DNA of 64,000 bases from Pseudomonadota bacterium. GTDB lineage: Archaea; Thermoplasmatota; SW-10-69-26; JACQPN01; JAJPHT01. Positions 40,886 through 51,184 of this stretch are shown in pieces. The DNA lies in the NCBI GenBank assembly GCA_021325135.1, contig JAJPHT010000029.1, forward strand, positions 32,001 to 96,000. The letters are read 5' to 3'. Below the pieces are notes generated by a model. The model was not told the DNA's origin. It made no database searches and saw only the letters and a program-made list of their open reading frames with translations. Made by a program: the position numbers and the translations under genes. Numbering within the stretch: position 1 is the stretch's first letter; each line of letters starts with the position of its first letter.

Positions 40886-41098
40886 ATGAGTCGAACCGCG
40901 ATTCTCCTCGCCCTTCTTGCCCTCGCCTCGTTGACCCCCCTCGCCACGGCGGAGATCACCCCCCAGTCCGACCTGCTGAACCCCACCTTTGTCCTGGGCA
41001 AGGGTCCCTGCAGCAGCGCCGACGACTGCTGCCCGCTGGACCCCACCTACTACGTGACCCACCCCTACGGCGTGACGAACAACTGCCAACAGGCCTGA
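40886..41098 (+). CDS. small secreted peptide (70 aa, 4 Cys in mature part)
   Basis: GGAGG SD; signal peptide MSRTAILLALLALASLTPLATA; mature EITPQSDLLNPTFVLGKGPCSSADDCCPLDPTYYVTHPYGVTNNCQQA. Confidence 0.8.
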   Translation: MSRTAILLALLALASLTPLATAEITPQSDLLNPTFVLGKGPCSSADDCCPLDPTYYVTHPYGVTNNCQQA

Positions 41099-41114
41099 TC
41101 CGGGAAGCCTCGAC

Positions 41115-42596
41115 ATGACGCCCGCGCCGGTCCGCCTCCTGGTCCCGCTCGCCCTGGCTGCCCTCCTCAGCCTCGGCGCCGCGTCGGCCAGCAGCGCGAT
41201 TGACGCGGGCGTCGCCTACGTCCAGGTCCAGGACTCGCGGGGGTCGGAGTGCGGCTCCCCCGTCCCGGACGTCTGCGCGGCCTCCACGCACGTCGACCCC
41301 GCCTCTCCGGGCGAGTCCACGGTGGACGCCTACCAGCGCATCGACTACGTCGGCGTCGCCACCAACCCCGACGGCGCCGGCATCCCCGTTTCCTCTCTTG
41401 GGCTCCCGGTCCCCGACGAGTCCTACACCGTCCACGGCAGCGACCTCTACGTCCGCGAGCCCTTCGTCCGCTTCGCGACGGAGCGCTGGCAGGACGTCTC
41501 CTCCCACCTCCCCGGCACGCCCGCCTACCTCCACATGGGGAGCGACGGCGTGGGCCTCCACTACGACGGCCCCAGCCCGTGGGACCCCAGCACCAGCGGG
41601 CCCCAGGCCGTGGGCTTCGACTATTCCCACGGCCAGGGCGTCGGCTACGAGCAGGTGGGCCCCGTGAACGCGCCCACCGGCACCAGCACCGACGAGGACG
41701 CCACCGGCTGGGAGACCGAGGTCTGCGACCCCGCCGACGCCACCTGCCACGGCGTCGCCCAGGGCTTCCGCGAGGCCTCGCCGAACGCCACCTGGGGCCT
41801 TGAGATCTACGACCTCCAGGCCGCCTCCAACCGCAGCGCGCTCACGGGCCCCGTCGCGCCCCATCTCGCCGCCGCCCCCGCCGCCCCGGCGGCGCCCGCG
41901 CCCGCCCCCCTTGTGGCGGCCGTTCCCCCCAGCCCCGGCGCCATCCCGCCGGCCGTCCACGCCCGCGCCGACGCCCCCGCGCCCTTCGCCGCCCGCGCGC
42001 CCCCCGCCCCGCGCGACGAGGGCGCGAAGGTCCTCGCCCGCGCCTCGGCCGGGGTGGCTCCCCCCTCGGCGCTGCGCGACCTCGCCGTCGCCGTGGCCGG
42101 CGGCGCCGTCCTGGCCGCGATCTTCAGCTCCCTCTACAACCGCTTCACCACCCGCGCCGAGGTCCTGGAGTCGGACGTCCGCGCGAAGCTCCTCCAGCTC
42201 ATCGGCGAGCGGCCGGGCATCTGCATCTCCGACGCCGTCCCCAGCCTGGGCATGACGCGCAACGCCGTGCTCCACCACGTCCGCATGCTGGCCCGCGCCC
42301 GCGTCATCGTCGTCGTCACCGAGGAGGGGCGCAAGCTGCTCTACCTCCCCGGCACGCAGCCGCAGCAGAGCCCCCTTCCCCCTGCCCTCCTGCGCCACCC
42401 CGTGCGCGGCGCCCTCCTCGCCGCCCTGCGCGAGTCCCCCGGCGGCATGACGCGCGACCAGGTGCACCAGCTGCTCTCCCACGTCCCGGAGCGCACCCGC
42501 AACTACACCATCGCCAGGCTCGCCGAGCGCAACATCATCCAGCAGCGCGCCGGGCCTGCAGGCGAGGCGATGCTGGTGCTCAACGAGGCCCCCTGA
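41115..42596 (+). CDS. membrane-anchored tandem winged-helix regulator with an extracellular domain
   Basis: Signal peptide, acidic ectodomain with Cys pairs, Pro/Ala linker, TM LAVAVAGGAVLAAIFSSLY, then VLESDVRAKLLQLI..RPG...LHHVRML and a second wHTH LRHPVRGALL..L..SPG. Confidence 0.8.
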   Translation: MTPAPVRLLVPLALAALLSLGAASASSAIDAGVAYVQVQDSRGSECGSPVPDVCAASTHVDPASPGESTVDAYQRIDYVGVATNPDGAGIPVSSLGLPVPDESYTVHGSDLYVREPFVRFATERWQDVSSHLPGTPAYLHMGSDGVGLHYDGPSPWDPSTSGPQAVGFDYSHGQGVGYEQVGPVNAPTGTSTDEDATGWETEVCDPADATCHGVAQGFREASPNATWGLEIYDLQAASNRSALTGPVAPHLAAAPAAPAAPAPAPLVAAVPPSPGAIPPAVHARADAPAPFAARAPPAPRDEGAKVLARASAGVAPPSALRDLAVAVAGGAVLAAIFSSLYNRFTTRAEVLESDVRAKLLQLIGERPGICISDAVPSLGMTRNAVLHHVRMLARARVIVVVTEEGRKLLYLPGTQPQQSPLPPALLRHPVRGALLAALRESPGGMTRDQVHQLLSHVPERTRNYTIARLAERNIIQQRAGPAGEAMLVLNEAP

Positions 42597-46630: not shown

Positions 46631-46822
46631 AATCGGGATTCAGCGTTGGACGAACAAGGGTATCTCGCCACGGGGAGTCCTTCCCTTGCCGAGACGGCGC
46701 GACGGTCGACCTCGCCTCAGAAGCCTCCTCGCTCCAAATCGTGGGGCCGACTGACGCTCGCCTCGACAGGCCTCCTGCGCCTGAAGCCAGTTCCGGGACC
46801 CGACAAGCGGGTCGTGGGAACC

Positions 46823-46892
46823 CGCCATCCGCAAGCCCCGCGATGCCTCCTGGGGGATTATGGGAGGCATCGCGGTGGGTGGCGTCCTTTTT
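46823..46892. terminator. long stem-loop followed by a T tract
   Basis: CCGCGATGCCTCC (46838-46850) pairs perfectly with GGAGGCATCGCGG (46863-46875); outer CGCCATCC/GGGTGGCG pairing; then CCTTTTT. Confidence 0.45.
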
Positions 46893-46966
46893 GTGACCTT
46901 GGTGACAAGCGCGCGCTTTCACGCCGCGGGGCGGCTCTTTCGCCCATGGCCGGGAGACGCGCGCGG

Positions 46967-47665
46967 ATGCCCTGGTCGCGCGAGCCCGCGGAGCCCGAGC
47001 AGGTCGCGCCGCCCGCGCCGCCCCTTCCCCGCCCCCCGGCGGCTCCCCACCACTGGCTCACCGTCCTCGTCGCGCGCCCTGGCCCCGAGGGTCCCCTGCC
47101 CGTGGCGGACGCGCGCGTCGTCATCCGCCCCTTCCCCCTGGGCGCGCCGAAGCCCGGAGAGCCCATGGCGCGCGCCGCCACCGGCCCCGAAGGCACCGTG
47201 GCGCTGCTCCTCCCCGCGGGTCGCTACGCCGTGAGCGCGCGCCATGCGGGCGAAGGCCGCGCCGTCACCGTCACGCTGGAGCACGCGGGCCGCGCGCTCC
47301 TGGTCCTGGAGGCCTTGGGCAAGCGCGTCGTCCTCACCGTGGAGGTCAGCGGCCCCGACGGAGGTGCCTTGCCCGGCGCGCCCGTGGAGGTGCGCAGCGC
47401 GCCGGCCGGCACGCTCGCCGCGCGCGGCGCGACCGACGAGCGCGGCGTCGCCACGCTGCACCTCCCCCCGGGCGCCTACGAGGTGCGCGTCGGCGCGGCC
47501 CGGGCGCGCACGTTCGTGGAGACGGATACGCTGCTGCGCCTCGCGGCCGAGGCCGCGCCCGCGCCGCAGCCGGTGGCCAGCCGCTACGCGCAGAAGGCGC
47601 GCGCCGCCACCAGCTACGTCGCCCCCTTCAGCGCCGAGCACGTGCGCGACGACGTGTGGAACTGA
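46967..47665 (+). CDS. protein with two carboxypeptidase-regulatory-like (transthyretin-fold) repeats
   Basis: Two repeats LTV.V....G.P...A.V.......T...G...L.LP.G.Y.V; no signal peptide; the start could also be 46946. Confidence 0.7.
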   Translation: MPWSREPAEPEQVAPPAPPLPRPPAAPHHWLTVLVARPGPEGPLPVADARVVIRPFPLGAPKPGEPMARAATGPEGTVALLLPAGRYAVSARHAGEGRAVTVTLEHAGRALLVLEALGKRVVLTVEVSGPDGGALPGAPVEVRSAPAGTLAARGATDERGVATLHLPPGAYEVRVGAARARTFVETDTLLRLAAEAAPAPQPVASRYAQKARAATSYVAPFSAEHVRDDVWN

Positions 47666-47671
47666 GGAATG

Positions 47672-49135
47672 CTATCGCCGCTCCGTCGCGCGCCTCGCGT
47701 CGCGGACCGCCTGCTGGACGCGGGGCTTGGCGCGCAGCTCGCGGTACTCGTCCTCCTCCTCGATCTCGAAGACCATCTCGGGGCTCTTGCGCAGCGCGGC
47801 CACGATGGCGCCTTGCGCCTCGTCTGAGGAGGAGTCGAAGCGCAGCAGGAGGCGCGCGAGGAGGATCTCGCCTTCGCCGTCGTCGCCCGCCTCGGCGGCG
47901 CGGCGGTAGGCGTCCAGCGCCTCGTCCACGCGGCCGGAGGACTCCAGGATGGTGCCGCGGTCCGCCAGGAGGCGCGGGTGGCGCGGCACCATGGCGAGGG
48001 CCTGCGTGTTCCAGTCCAGGGCGAGGCCCCACGCGCCCTGCTCGATGGCGCGCTCGGAGAGGTCCATGCACTGCTCCACGGTGAGGCCCGGCCTGCGCGC
48101 GAAGCGGCGGACGCCCCACGCGGCCGCGCCCGCCGCCAGCACCGTGCCCCCCACCAGGAGGGCGGCGGTCGCGGGGAAGGGCGACCCTTCGGGAGAGGCG
48201 GGGGCGTAGCGCACGCCCGCGACGGCGGCGTCCCCCTCGATGCGCAGCACGGCGTCGGTCTGCCCCGCGTCGTCCTTCGTGGCGGTGAGGCTCCCTGCGA
48301 GGCGCCCCACGAGGCGCGTGGGCCCGTCGGTGACGCCCTGCTGGTCGCCCACCTGGAGCTGGCCCCCGGTGGCGTCCGCGCCCACGGCGCCGCACTGCGC
48401 GAGGAGGACCTGCGTCGAGGCGGCGGCGAGGGGCACGCGCGTGTCCAGGGTGAGCGACGCGTTGCGCATGGTGAGGGTGGCCCAGGAGTCGTGGTACTGG
48501 CCCAGGGGCCCCGCGTCGCCGGTGCGCCCCGTGTCCACGAAGGAGAGGTTCTCCCGCGCCTGGAGGGAGAGGTTGAGCCCCTGGAGCTTCACGACGAGGT
48601 CGCCGTCGAGGCGCACGCGCCCCCCCACCTCGTAGGCCAGCGTCGGGCCCAGCACGCGCAGGGCGAAGTAGTTCGCATCGGGCTGGGGCGCCGCCTCGGG
48701 CGTCACGCTGTCCATGCCGACGATGGTCTGCGCGAGGGGGCTCCACGAGACGTTCCCCGCCTCCAGGGGATGCAGGCTGGTCCCGGGCGCGTCGTACACG
48801 CCCATCCAGCCGTCGGGCCAGGGCGCGAGGTCGCGCAGCGAGCCGCGCACGTCGTGGACCTCGTAGCTGCGCTCCTGCATGGGCTGGTTGGGCGGCGTCA
48901 CGATGAGGCTGCCCACGCGCTGGTTGGCCTTGTCGAACCAGTCGACGTCCACCGTGGAGGCGGTGAAGGTCCAGGAGCGCAGCCCCTGGAACCCGCCCAC
49001 GTAGGCCGCCTGGGGGTGGGCCGTGAAGAGGGCCTCGTCCGCGTCGGCGTGCCGGACCGTGAGGGTGCCCGCGACGCTCGCCGCTGATCCCGTGGGGACC
49101 AGCAGGACGAGGAGCAGCACCGCCCAGGCCTTCAC
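47672..49135 (-). CDS. single-pass membrane protein with extracellular beta domain and cytoplasmic TPR repeats
   Basis: GTG start, signal peptide (M)KAWAVLLLVLLVPTGSAA; TM ALLVGGTVLAAGAAAWGV followed by RRFARR; TPR pattern AL...P.HP.LLA.RG.IL...GR.DEAL..Y.RA. Confidence 0.8.
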   Translation of the reverse strand: MKAWAVLLLVLLVPTGSAASVAGTLTVRHADADEALFTAHPQAAYVGGFQGLRSWTFTASTVDVDWFDKANQRVGSLIVTPPNQPMQERSYEVHDVRGSLRDLAPWPDGWMGVYDAPGTSLHPLEAGNVSWSPLAQTIVGMDSVTPEAAPQPDANYFALRVLGPTLAYEVGGRVRLDGDLVVKLQGLNLSLQARENLSFVDTGRTGDAGPLGQYHDSWATLTMRNASLTLDTRVPLAAASTQVLLAQCGAVGADATGGQLQVGDQQGVTDGPTRLVGRLAGSLTATKDDAGQTDAVLRIEGDAAVAGVRYAPASPEGSPFPATAALLVGGTVLAAGAAAWGVRRFARRPGLTVEQCMDLSERAIEQGAWGLALDWNTQALAMVPRHPRLLADRGTILESSGRVDEALDAYRRAAEAGDDGEGEILLARLLLRFDSSSDEAQGAIVAALRKSPEMVFEIEEEDEYRELRAKPRVQQAVRDARRATERR

Positions 49136-49219
49136 GGGCCGCGCATCCCCGGATTCACGCTTGGCGTTTCCCGTCGCCGGGCCACCCAATCCGGCCCGGC
49201 TCCCGGGGCGCTTGCGGTT

Positions 49220-49274
49220 TAGTCTGGAGATTGCCTCGCGATATCCAGACTATCGCGGCGGCCCTATCGCGGCG
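49220..49274. promoter_or_regulatory. operator-like dyad plus direct repeat in the divergent promoter region
   Basis: TAGTCTGGAGAT-N9-ATATCCAGACTA (11/12 inverted match); CTATCGCGGCG at 49250 and again at 49264. Confidence 0.6.
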
Positions 49275-49303
49275 CGAGGAGCGGAGGGCGCGAGGTTCCC
49301 ACC

Positions 49304-49483
49304 TTGCGACCTTCGACCCTTGTGATGCTGGCCCTGTCCCTCTGCCTCGTCGGCCTCGGCGCGGAGCCCGTGGCCCTCGCCGACCCCTCGGACCTGCCTC
49401 CCCAGGACACGCCCTGCGTCTCCGTCAACGCGAGCGTCTTCCCCCCGGAGATCCACGAGGCCCCCTGCCCCGTCCTCGGCTGA
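49304..49483 (+). CDS. small secreted peptide (59 aa, one Cys pair in mature part); not in the supplied ORF track
   Basis: TTG start 7 nt after GAGGT; (M)RPSTLVMLALSLCLVGLGAEPVALA-DPSDLPPQDTPCVSVNASVFPPEIHEAPCPVLG; nearly all codons end in C/G. Confidence 0.7.
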   Translation: MRPSTLVMLALSLCLVGLGAEPVALADPSDLPPQDTPCVSVNASVFPPEIHEAPCPVLG

Positions 49484-49527
49484 AGGCAAGGACAGCCTTC
49501 ATGCGAGGGGCGGCCCTTCGGCCCGGC

Positions 49528-50106
49528 ATGGCCTGGTTCGACGGCGGCGCCGTGGAGACGCTGGCCCGCGCGGGGGGCGCGCTCGCCTCCTCCGCCCTTC
49601 TCCTGGGCCGCCGCCCCCTGGGGCCCGAGCGCGTCCTGGAGAGCCCGGTCCGCCAGCAGATCCTCGCCCGCGCGCGGGCGACGCCGGGCCTCTCGCTCAT
49701 GGAGCTGCGCCGCGTCATGGGGCTGGGGTGGGGCAACCTGTACCACCACCTCAAGCGCCTGGAGAAGGCGGGGCTCGTGGAGACGCGCGCCGCCGGGCGG
49801 CAATGCCTGGTGTTCCCCACGGGGAGCCGCGGCACGGAGTCGCACCAGCGCGCCTCCATGCTGCGCGGCGCGACCGCGCGCTGGGTCGCGGGCTACGTCC
49901 TCGCGCACCCAGGCTGCGACTTCGCGGACCTGCTCAAGGACGCGCCCGTGGAGCAGCGCACCGTCTACTACCACGTCCAGCGCCTCCAGCGCGCGAAGCT
50001 CATCCGCGCCGGCAGCCGCAGCCGCTACTTCGACCTGCGCCCCGCCGACGACCTGGCGGACTGCCTCGCCCGGGTCACCCCGGGTGACCAGGGCCCAAAG
50101 GCTTGA
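49528..50106 (+). CDS. tandem winged-helix transcriptional regulator
   Basis: VLESPVRQQIL....TPGL...ELRR..GLGWGNLYHHLKRLEKAGLV and a second wHTH HPG....L......RTVYYHVQRL; the start may be 49501. Confidence 0.8.
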   Translation: MAWFDGGAVETLARAGGALASSALLLGRRPLGPERVLESPVRQQILARARATPGLSLMELRRVMGLGWGNLYHHLKRLEKAGLVETRAAGRQCLVFPTGSRGTESHQRASMLRGATARWVAGYVLAHPGCDFADLLKDAPVEQRTVYYHVQRLQRAKLIRAGSRSRYFDLRPADDLADCLARVTPGDQGPKA

Positions 50107-50131
50107 ACGCGGGCCCCCCGTTCGCGCCCCC

Positions 50132-51184
50132 ATGGGCAAGGACGAGCCCCTGACCTACGCCGGCTCGGGCGTCGACATCAAGGCCAAGGACGAGGCCGCC
50201 AAGGCCATGGTGGGCCTCCTCTCCTACGCGCGCACCGGCATGGGGCGCCCCCTGGGCGGCGCGGGCCACTTCGCCGGCATGGTGGAGTTCGGCGAGCACG
50301 CCCTCGTCCTGGCCACCGACGGCGTGGGCACCAAGCTGGAGATCGCCAACGCGCTCCGCAAGTGGGACACCGTGGGGATCGACTGCGTGGCCATGAACGT
50401 CAACGACGCCGTGTGCGTGGGCGCCGAGCCCATCGCGTTCGTGGACTACCTCGCCATCGACAAGCCCGACCCGCACCTCGTCGCGGAGCTGGCCAAGGGC
50501 CTCAACGAGGGCGCGCGCCAGAGCAACATGACCGTCGTGGGGGGCGAGACGGCCGTCCTCCCCTCGCTCGTGAAGGGCTTCGACCTCGCCGGCACCGTGC
50601 TGGGCGTCGTGCGCAAGGACCGCATCGTCAGCGGCGAGCGCATCGCCCCTGGTGATATCATGGTGGGCGTCGCCTCCAGCGGCGTCCACAGCAACGGGTA
50701 CACGCTGGTGCGCCGCGCCATGGAGCGCGCGGGCGTCAAGCTCTCCGACAAGCTCCCCTCCGGGGGCACCGTGGGCGAGGCGCTCCTCACGCCCACGCGC
50801 ATCTACGTCAAGGCCGTGCTGGAATTGCTGGAGGCGCTCCCCCACGGCGCGGTCCACGGCATCAGCCACGTCACCGGCTCGGGGCTCCTCAACGTCCCGC
50901 GCCTCAAGAAGGACGTGCGCTACGTCCTCGACGCGCCGCTGCCCGTCCCCGCGATCCTCCGCGAGGTGCAGCGCTGGGGCGGCGTCGCCGAGGACGAGAT
51001 GTGGCGCACCTTCAACATGGGCATGGGCCTCTGCGTCCTCGTCGCGCCCGAGCACGCCGAGCGCGCCGTCGCCCTCCTCGCGAAGCACTTCCCCGCGCAG
51101 CGCGTGGGGCGCGTCGAGGCCGGGAGCGGGATCAGCGTGCCCTCCTTCGGCGTGGAATTGACCGGGGCGAAGGCGCAGTTCTGA
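50132..51184 (+). CDS. purM: phosphoribosylformylglycinamidine cyclo-ligase (AIR synthetase)
   Basis: TYAGSGVDI, TDGVGTK, GIDCVAMNVND, GGETA, SSGVHSNGY, HVTG, TFNMGMG. Confidence 0.96.
   Translation: MGKDEPLTYAGSGVDIKAKDEAAKAMVGLLSYARTGMGRPLGGAGHFAGMVEFGEHALVLATDGVGTKLEIANALRKWDTVGIDCVAMNVNDAVCVGAEPIAFVDYLAIDKPDPHLVAELAKGLNEGARQSNMTVVGGETAVLPSLVKGFDLAGTVLGVVRKDRIVSGERIAPGDIMVGVASSGVHSNGYTLVRRAMERAGVKLSDKLPSGGTVGEALLTPTRIYVKAVLELLEALPHGAVHGISHVTGSGLLNVPRLKKDVRYVLDAPLPVPAILREVQRWGGVAEDEMWRTFNMGMGLCVLVAPEHAERAVALLAKHFPAQRVGRVEAGSGISVPSFGVELTGAKAQF

Follow-up and report, generated by a model that had tools for sequence, protein, structure and literature searches.

In this work, we describe a cassette of three genes, found at positions 47672-50106 of a 64,000-nt stretch of DNA (the window, to which all unlabelled coordinates refer), which recurs in related genomes and may act as a transmembrane signalling module. 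The window has a GC content of 72% and comes from a genome of 3.77 Mb (G000) encoding a TATA-binding protein; among the control genomes this protein is present only in the archaeal ones, and the host is therefore taken to be an archaeon. A gene for a putative membrane receptor, on the minus strand, is divergent from a small open reading frame (sORF) on the plus strand, which encodes a hairpin protein predicted to be exported and is followed, on the same strand, by the gene of a tandem winged helix-turn-helix (wHTH) regulator. A first-pass annotation had described the receptor, a secreted peptide, the regulator and a dyad in the shared promoter, and had suggested a kinase-free circuit: all four parts were found in this interval, and no kinase belongs to the set. 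In what follows, labels in C denote contigs of this genome, those in L the loci compared and those in G the genomes compared. The features of the cassette are:

47672-49189, minus strand: receptor gene, 505 aa from a TTG at 49189, as given in the list of open reading frames (ORFs)
47675-48088, minus strand: putatively cytoplasmic tetratricopeptide repeat (TPR) domain of the receptor, residues 368-505; three repeats plus capping helices, predicted local distance difference test (pLDDT) score above 90
48104-48172, minus strand: predicted transmembrane (TM) helix, residues 340-362, from the AlphaFold2 (AF2) model, with a putative topology
48200-49090, minus strand: ectodomain, residues 34-330; long antiparallel beta-strands in a domain-only AF2 model
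49220-49252, no strand: imperfect palindrome TAGTCTGGAGAT-N9-ATATCCAGACTA, central to the divergent promoter region and a candidate operator for the wHTH regulator
49250-49274, no strand: exact repeat, CTATCGCGGCG in two copies with a spacing of 14 nt; it overlaps the palindrome in its right arm
49304-49483, plus strand: gene of the hairpin protein in its short form (59 aa); the start is a TTG, preceded by GAGGT at 7 nt
49304-49381, plus strand: predicted Sec-type signal peptide, basic and hydrophobic, with a putative cut after ALA
49382-49480, plus strand: mature hairpin part, 33 aa, with two Cys and a central PP
49467-49514, plus strand: RNA stem-loop, in which the sORF stop region pairs with the AUG start of the wHTH gene
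49501-50106, plus strand: tandem winged-helix regulator, 201 aa, starting 17 nt after the sORF stop; alternative start at 49528

The gene caller places the start of the receptor at residue 19, a GTG at 49135, which shortens the product to 487 aa and widens the gap to the sORF from 114 nt, as counted from 49189, to 168 nt. The full-length AF2 model, obtained with 18 homologues, has a mean pLDDT of 85 and features a hydrophobic N-terminal helix (residues 20-30), an all-beta region (37-324) and a further helix (340-362), directly followed by the motif RRFARR and then by nine short helices at 371-504. By the well-established positive-inside rule, this basic stop-transfer stretch after the TM helix should place the TPR domain in the cytoplasm. 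Alignment A1, in which 17 paralogues and homologues are compared with the window receptor, reveals an identical architecture in all 18, with identities among paralogues of 20-30%. In Pfam the receptor finds TPR-type matches only, all under the curated cut-offs (the best at 23.7 versus 32.7 bits), and no SdpI-family match at E 0.1 or better; no family matching it is found in NCBIfam.

As far as the model can tell, the tail is clearly a fold of the three-TPR, peptide-binding type. Compared with TPR1 of HOP (1elw), it yields a VIA Z score of 15.6, with a root-mean-square deviation of 2.1 A over 114 of 115 residues; Sti1 TPR2B follows at Z 15.0, CHIP, Sgt2 and SycD-class chaperones at Z 13-14, and consensus TPR proteins are matched with a Foldseek probability of 1.0. 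The Z of 13.0 obtained for PlcR is a value generic among TPRs. The ectodomain, modelled alone, reaches a pLDDT of 96.1 and a predicted TM-score (pTM) of 0.91. No convincing relative of it was found in the PDB (best VIA Z 4.5 over 99 residues), TM-scores do not exceed 0.12 in Foldseek and 0.27 in the ESM Atlas, and a feature search of the Atlas gave no usable match; for a predicted structure such as this, a missing match is no proof of a new fold.

The sORF is absent, according to the first-pass annotation, from the ORF track. GC content by codon position is 0.75/0.51/0.93, and a sliding measure at third positions (GC3) stays between 0.90 and 0.97 along the sORF, in its own frame alone. This is a clear coding signature for a genome of 72% GC, by which the sORF reads as a coding gene; the claim that it is genuine and conserved is borne out by the GC3 of 0.93 and by homologues at paralogous and external loci. 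Two other sources of the pattern were ruled out. A shadow ORF on the minus strand (49264-50139) does not account for it, GC1 exceeding GC2 in the plus-strand reading only. Nor are the sORF and the wHTH gene one frameshifted gene: they lie in different frames and have their own starts, and the GC3 frame switches at 49480-49500. At homologous loci, hairpin and wHTH genes are separate, 3-146 nt apart. One such hairpin gene, on L029, was called by the original annotation; another, on L059, is not among the called genes.

The regulator, with a GC3 of about 1.0, consists of a 45-aa N-terminal extension followed by two ArsR/HVO_0163-type wHTH domains. Pfam detects HTH_20 (49.2 bits, cut-off 27) and HTH_HVO_0163_N (PF24266; 49.0 bits, cut-off 31), each in two stretches; with a score above the gathering threshold and two wHTH units, the protein belongs to the HVO_0163-type tandem wHTH proteins. 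Its match to NF033789, the SdpR subfamily, is sub-threshold (19.3 bits, E 7.6e-4, cut-off 100). The extension contains, in alignment A2, a short hydrophobic stretch of about 10 residues and then a basic motif, with no convincing TM helix; in the soluble regulators encoded beside TPR receptors, which share it, this hydrophobic and basic extension sits where fused relatives, described below, have their TM helix. The tandem-wHTH profile finds 48-60 matches in the genome. The six closest paralogues of the window wHTH protein are all soluble, and four of these six are located in cassettes. Many of the genomic matches lie in open frames of 500-800 aa and are probably membrane-tethered. Archaeal genomes carry on average about four transmembrane regulators, according to a survey (PMC10269533).

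Profile searches place the receptor in a family of at least 448 clusters (at 50% identity) at E 1e-30 or better, and the best 150 of them all align over the full length. The family is visible only in this way: a word-index search returned a single non-self relative (51% identity), and a pattern search of the genome contigs with the single receptor protein gave 87 pattern matches and no confirmed relative; in the receptor alignment, conserved stretches are too short for a search of this kind. About ten strong paralogues are found in the genome itself; among the 301 genomes of the phylum the receptor is present in 17, including 7 out of 8 of its own family.

Hairpin genes were sought near these receptors by a rule requiring an ORF of 40-330 aa, with a hydrophobic N-terminus and a Pro-containing Cys loop within the last 80 residues. 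By this rule, 9 out of 10 receptors of the genome have such an ORF at a distance of up to 800 nt, as against 68 of 713 control long ORFs (9.5%); the rule also finds one adjacent to 18 of the 29 external receptors. Four further external hairpin ORFs, which failed the rule on start-codon or proline criteria, were recognized by eye (L021, L025, L026, L038) and bring the latter figure to 22 out of 29; most of the external receptors left without one lie at the end of a contig or belong to the genomes farthest removed. Within 1.8 kb, 5 out of 10 own and 17 out of 29 external receptors have a tandem wHTH gene.

The paralogous loci on C11, C7, C19 and C46 feature the same three genes in the same layout, and the small gene always encodes a signal peptide and a C-terminal Cys loop of one design. 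External loci were contributed by congeners and by different genera, by further families within the class and by two more in the phylum at large; those of other families include loci of G142, G201, G270 and G012. The set was also found on unrelated metagenome contigs (L029, L032, L056, L057, L059), from forest-soil assemblies and one metagenome-assembled genome (MAG) at NCBI. Kin and paralogous loci are non-independent samples, and the counts are to be read accordingly. The commonest order is that of the window, with the receptor divergent from hairpin and then regulator. Elsewhere, hairpin, receptor and wHTH genes lie in this order on one strand (L044), or the hairpin gene is followed by the receptor gene (L039, L054, L055), or the receptor gene by the regulator gene (L041, L045): the association of hairpin and receptor survives these changes.

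That the three genes co-occur elsewhere thus holds for about ten loci of the genome, for other genera and families and for metagenome contigs, in several gene orders, and the set is a real, conserved and apparently undescribed module. The outcomes that the first-pass annotation had itself listed as counting against its proposal, such as a peptide ORF that is not conserved or genes that do not co-occur elsewhere, were not encountered, as far as sequence can tell. The cassette is missing from the corresponding site of two congeners: upstream of purM in G002 (L065, where purM is 93% identical) and in G001 (L068), compared with 46646-51184 of the window, different genes are found. One of these, in G001, encodes a secreted protein of 195 aa and low complexity. 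The position of the cassettes is therefore fluid.

Hairpin genes lie beside the receptor also where no wHTH gene is near (C42, C45, C7:4875, C19:24948, L032, L040, L054, L055, L057). The primary tie of the hairpin is therefore to the receptor, which speaks against the hairpin gene being a mere target of the regulator. The tie between receptor and regulator emerges from domain re-assortments. A receptor-type ectodomain with its TM helix (profile positions 5-363) is fused to a tandem wHTH in C1:7549-9453, C49:79862-81820, C40:225258-226796 and, in another family, L046, and these fusions provide a Rosetta-stone link between ectodomain and regulator. In L053, where there is no hairpin gene, a TM-plus-TPR protein lacking the ectodomain is divergent from a wHTH gene, which ties the TPR tail, too, to the regulator. 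Both links, the one from the ectodomain and the one from the TPR domain, had been postulated from the window alone and are backed by these arrangements. Over 18 cognate pairs, receptor and wHTH distances correlate with a Mantel r of 0.64, a value reached by 1 in 5000 permutations and inflated by kinship; the correlation is consistent with duplication as a unit. Direct TPR-wHTH fusions were not found: a TPR-profile search of longer proteins gave 77 matches, generic long TPRs and known receptors, none with an HTH, and such crowding makes this weak evidence.

Some related arrangements may be mentioned here. In C49:79862-82798, two ORFs of 60 aa lie behind the fusion (652 aa); both have a GC3 of 1.00 and encode a signal peptide and several Cys, among them a hairpin-like loop. 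Receptor-type TPR domains occur free-standing or with a TM helix only in L025:1090-1644 (minus strand), C23:6662-7258 and C40:151725-152258; one such gene lies just downstream of the wHTH gene of a cassette.

These data also bear on an explanation in which no signalling is involved, receptor and hairpin forming a surface or envelope structure, the TPR tail serving as a scaffold for cytoplasmic partners and the wHTH protein being just a local regulator. It would account for the 40-50% of receptors without an adjacent wHTH gene, and 48-60 wHTH matches in one genome make chance adjacency easy. However, the ectodomain-TM-wHTH fusions and the TM-TPR/wHTH pairs are hard to explain without a functional link, and the adjacent wHTH proteins come from one soluble subfamily; we regard this explanation as quite unlikely.

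The region between the divergent genes contains the dyad already noticed in the first pass, and its strength is confirmed: the 15-nt arms, at 49220-49234 and 49238-49252, are complementary at 13 out of 15 positions, a level met by 13 out of 1000 Markov-1 randomizations of the 168-nt spacer, and GTCTGGA-N(8-22)-TCCAGAC occurs only once in the 3.77-Mb genome. The palindrome overlaps AT-richer patches of both divergent promoters. A scan of 49100-49540 for sigma-70 promoters and intrinsic terminators found none, as expected for an archaeon. The stem-loop across the sORF stop and the wHTH start has a minimum free energy of -27.1 kcal/mol (z -3.09; 1 of 200 shuffles was equally stable), and its position suggests translational coupling of hairpin protein and regulator. 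Some other cassettes, both paralogous and orthologous, have a GAGAATTCTC-like palindrome or GTGAATTC between the receptor and hairpin genes, 50-250 nt upstream of the latter (L015, L020, L021, L027; also L009 and L013). The GAGAATTCTC-like palindrome, missing from the window spacer, could be a shared promoter or operator element.

We tentatively read the cassette, at somewhat short of an even chance, as one copy of a sequestration-type module with three components, specific to its lineage, which would signal across the membrane without a kinase. The reading sets out from what was observed: the anatomy of the locus, a coding sORF, three families that recur and co-occur, and re-assortments of their domains. 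The small gene would give rise to a Sec-exported protein, whose functional core would be a C-terminal, disulfide-stapled beta-hairpin, and this protein would be the cognate extracellular partner, ligand or co-sensor, of the beta-rich ectodomain. On the inner side, the TPR domain would tether the tandem-wHTH regulator to the membrane, and the contact would probably be made by the hydrophobic and basic N-terminal extension of the regulator. Occupancy of the ectodomain would alter the hold of the TPR domain, and the freed regulator would bind the palindrome, leading to autoregulation of both the receptor gene and the hairpin-regulator operon. The most economical description may be that of a split transmembrane regulator, in which a TPR tail takes the place of the covalent link between ectodomain and wHTH.

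Several points weigh against this interpretation. Every binding step is inferred, as are the direction in which regulation works and the kind of primary signal; a signalling function is, on present sequence evidence, well motivated but unproven. The N-terminal motif of the regulator, by which tethering would occur, is only loosely conserved in alignment A2, and no common dyad or operator was found across the paralogous cassettes. The TPR tail may serve other clients, too, given that 40-50% of the receptors lack a wHTH gene in the surrounding 1.8 kb. Small Cys-loop peptide genes lie beside only one of the four ectodomain-wHTH fusions, that of C49; the other three lack such a neighbour, and the ectodomain is therefore not always accompanied by a hairpin partner. 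Finally, many hairpin proteins are long forms of 120-190 aa with a fibronectin type III (Fn3)-like domain, and these suit a stable subunit better than a diffusible signal. A complex prediction for ectodomain 34-332 (with A1) and the mature hairpin (with A3) returned 0.41, 0.00 and 0.00, with no controls, and counts neither way.

In the 59-aa protein of the window, Cys38 and Cys55 bracket a 16-residue loop and probably form a disulfide. The design of the C-terminal hairpin is constant: between two Cys run a strand in which hydrophobic residues alternate, one to four Pro and a return strand. Alignment A3, of 22 members, has nearly invariant C12, P22 and C29 and little else is kept. Short forms are 56-77 aa long and would yield, once mature, some 30-40 aa with a single disulfide. 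The long forms make up about half of the family; in them the Fn3-like domain, bearing a W...YxVYG pattern and absent from the window protein, precedes the hairpin, and a further C-terminal strand ending in GLP is conserved. For a C19 long form, the neighbours of the model in the ESM Atlas are fn3 clusters (TM-score 0.52-0.66); Pfam fn3 is found in one of seven long forms at E 0.0048, below threshold. Some members contain two tandem hairpins (L021; C7:6661-6999). Neither Pfam nor NCBIfam contains a family matching the hairpin proteins, nor did they reveal any likeness to known archaeocins or bacteriocins. The label of secreted disulfide peptide, proposed in the first pass, hence suits the window form and fails for the family, about half of which has 120-190 aa and an Fn3-like domain: given the long forms, "peptide" is too narrow a name.

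For the same reason, a diffusible autoinducer is one option only, a co-receptor or subunit being just as possible. The hairpin protein might be an obligate co-receptor, similar to ToxS or TcpH: a permanent extracellular subunit which, perhaps by adding a beta-strand, stabilizes the ectodomain or makes it complete. The true input would be an environmental cue or the state of the envelope. Such a role would fit the very tight adjacency to the receptor in every gene order, including the hairpin-then-receptor operon, a placement which suggests stoichiometric co-expression, and it would give a meaning to the Fn3-like domain and to the conserved extra strand ending in GLP of the long forms. However, the hairpin gene mostly lies in the operon of the regulator, not in that of the receptor, and short forms are the hairpin alone; on balance, we view this role as possible, if distinctly doubtful.

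A quorum-type system would be a sub-case of the sequestration module. Hairpins would be released, diffuse between cells and be sensed by the cognate ectodomain, as strain- or channel-specific signals; the ten or so paralogous cassettes, each with its own TPR receptor and wHTH regulator, would be parallel, private channels of communication. The short forms, taken as precursors of a small product with one disulfide, would suit this role, and a hairpin gene co-transcribed with the regulator, near a palindrome, has the layout of an autoinduction loop; many divergent paralogous cassettes in one genome also recall Rap-Phr arrays. In contrast, about half of the family is made of Fn3-plus-hairpin proteins of 120-190 aa, and the set has no conserved processing protease or exporter. 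We hold this scheme to be rather unlikely; the long forms make a pure pheromone reading, in particular, appear less likely than the first-pass annotation had assumed.

The analogy with RRNPP systems (Rap/Phr, NprR, PlcR/PapR, PrgX, Rgg), drawn in the same annotation, did not survive inspection of the architecture. It is true that RRNPP systems, too, feature a TPR gene beside a small gene for an exported pro-peptide, and many cassettes in one genome. However, RRNPP receptors are soluble, bind the re-imported peptide through their TPRs and carry their own HTH or phosphatase domain as effector, whereas the receptor described here spans the membrane, has its TPR domain behind a membrane-spanning ectodomain arrangement and lacks an HTH; membership fails because of the solubility and the effector domain of RRNPP receptors. 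Moreover, the partner here may reach 190 aa, and no Opp-type importer is linked.

By analogy, the logic of the module, as we reconstruct it, appears closest to that of SdpC-SdpI-SdpR and of transmembrane transcription regulators, and also near that of anti-sigma factors. Anti-sigma/ECF (extracytoplasmic function) pairs, such as RsgI-SigI and FecR-FecI, are made of a single-pass sensor holding a transcription factor, with adjacent, autoregulated genes. The present module resembles them in having a single-pass protein with an extracellular sensor domain, a cytoplasmic domain proposed to hold a transcription factor, and adjacent genes. It differs in that a TPR is not an anti-sigma domain, the client is a tandem wHTH protein, and no site-1 or site-2 protease is linked; to our knowledge, sigma factors are absent from Archaea.

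In the Sdp system of Bacillus subtilis, an extracellular protein binds a membrane protein, which sequesters an ArsR-type autorepressor, with no kinase involved (PMC2910880). The window module similarly combines a secreted protein, a membrane protein with an outside and an inside face, and an adjacent ArsR-like wHTH protein, the putative autoregulator, and does so without phosphorylation. The parts are, however, different: SdpI is multipass (3-12 TM helices) and has neither TPR nor ectodomain, while the receptor combines a single TM helix with a beta ectodomain of 290 aa and a TPR tail. Further differences are the two wHTH domains of the regulator, a hairpin without relationship to SdpC and an archaeal host; sequestration is here only proposed. 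The similarity raises the question of whether the cassette could serve in toxin sensing and immunity, or in kin discrimination, the hairpin being an antimicrobial or self-recognition factor and the receptor releasing or sequestering the regulator so as to elicit protection. The logic of the Bacillus system (PMC2910880), in which a membrane protein sequesters an ArsR-type autorepressor, would match, and so would the high divergence of the paralogues (20-30% identity) and a variable position, not beside purM in congeners. The set, however, contains neither an immunity-like multipass protein nor a dedicated exporter, and the hairpins are unlike the archaeocins or bacteriocins known to Pfam or NCBIfam: such a function seems to us very unlikely indeed.

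Among transmembrane transcription regulators, ToxR/ToxS, TcpP/TcpH and CadC (survey PMC10269533) are similar to the proposed split regulator in that a wHTH output is controlled from the membrane without a kinase; ToxS and TcpH are, in addition, small periplasmic or extracellular partners encoded next door. A DNA-binding domain and a TM helix in one chain, which define the single-chain regulators, are found together in the fusions of C1, C40, C49 and L046, but not in the proteins of the window cassette. In contrast to ToxR, these fused relatives have a reversed topology, with the ectodomain N-terminal and the DNA-binding part C-terminal; neither the ectodomain nor the hairpin partner is related to ToxR or ToxS.

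No such module was found described in the full-text literature searched, an absence which is no proof of novelty. We know of no peptide-based signalling system genetically defined in Archaea, and none was found in the same literature. Archaeal transmembrane signal transduction being poorly mapped, the module represents a concrete and testable candidate, with a plausible output, the regulator putatively held by the TPR domain, and a small partner gene that is conserved and mostly unannotated. Were sequestration to occur as proposed, the logic of SdpI and of anti-sigma factors would extend to Archaea with entirely different parts, and single-chain transmembrane regulators would be linked to a split, TPR-tethered version. 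Were the hairpins diffusible signals, this would be the first genetically defined cell-cell signalling of peptide type in Archaea, with a new ectodomain fold and a new ligand family. The window sORF and L059 indicate, in any case, that a family of exported mini-proteins can escape gene callers in archaeal MAGs of high GC content.

Outside the cassette, the gene at 46646-47665 (plus strand), convergent with the receptor gene, encodes a Pro-rich protein with beta-sandwich repeats of the CarboxypepD_reg type (E 6e-11). A homologue stays beside purM in G001, and the gene is therefore probably not part of the module. Elsewhere in the genome, C8:62194-63110 and C42:19242-20973 contain tandem arrays, of three and four paralogues, of small secreted proteins rich in Cys, which have no relationship with the hairpin family and lie away from receptors and wHTH genes.

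A last point concerns the region 40886-42596 of the window, where the first-pass annotation had seen the same parts in fused form. A fused protein is indeed encoded at 41115-42596, with a signal peptide, an ectodomain, a Pro/Ala linker, a TM helix and a tandem wHTH. Its ectodomain, however, is a different one: it finds no match with the receptor profile even at E 10, and the parts are therefore not the same. Judged by its sequence, the region is a second, different membrane-regulator module, and the fused gene is preceded, at 16 nt, by an ORF for a 70-aa product with a signal peptide and four Cys.

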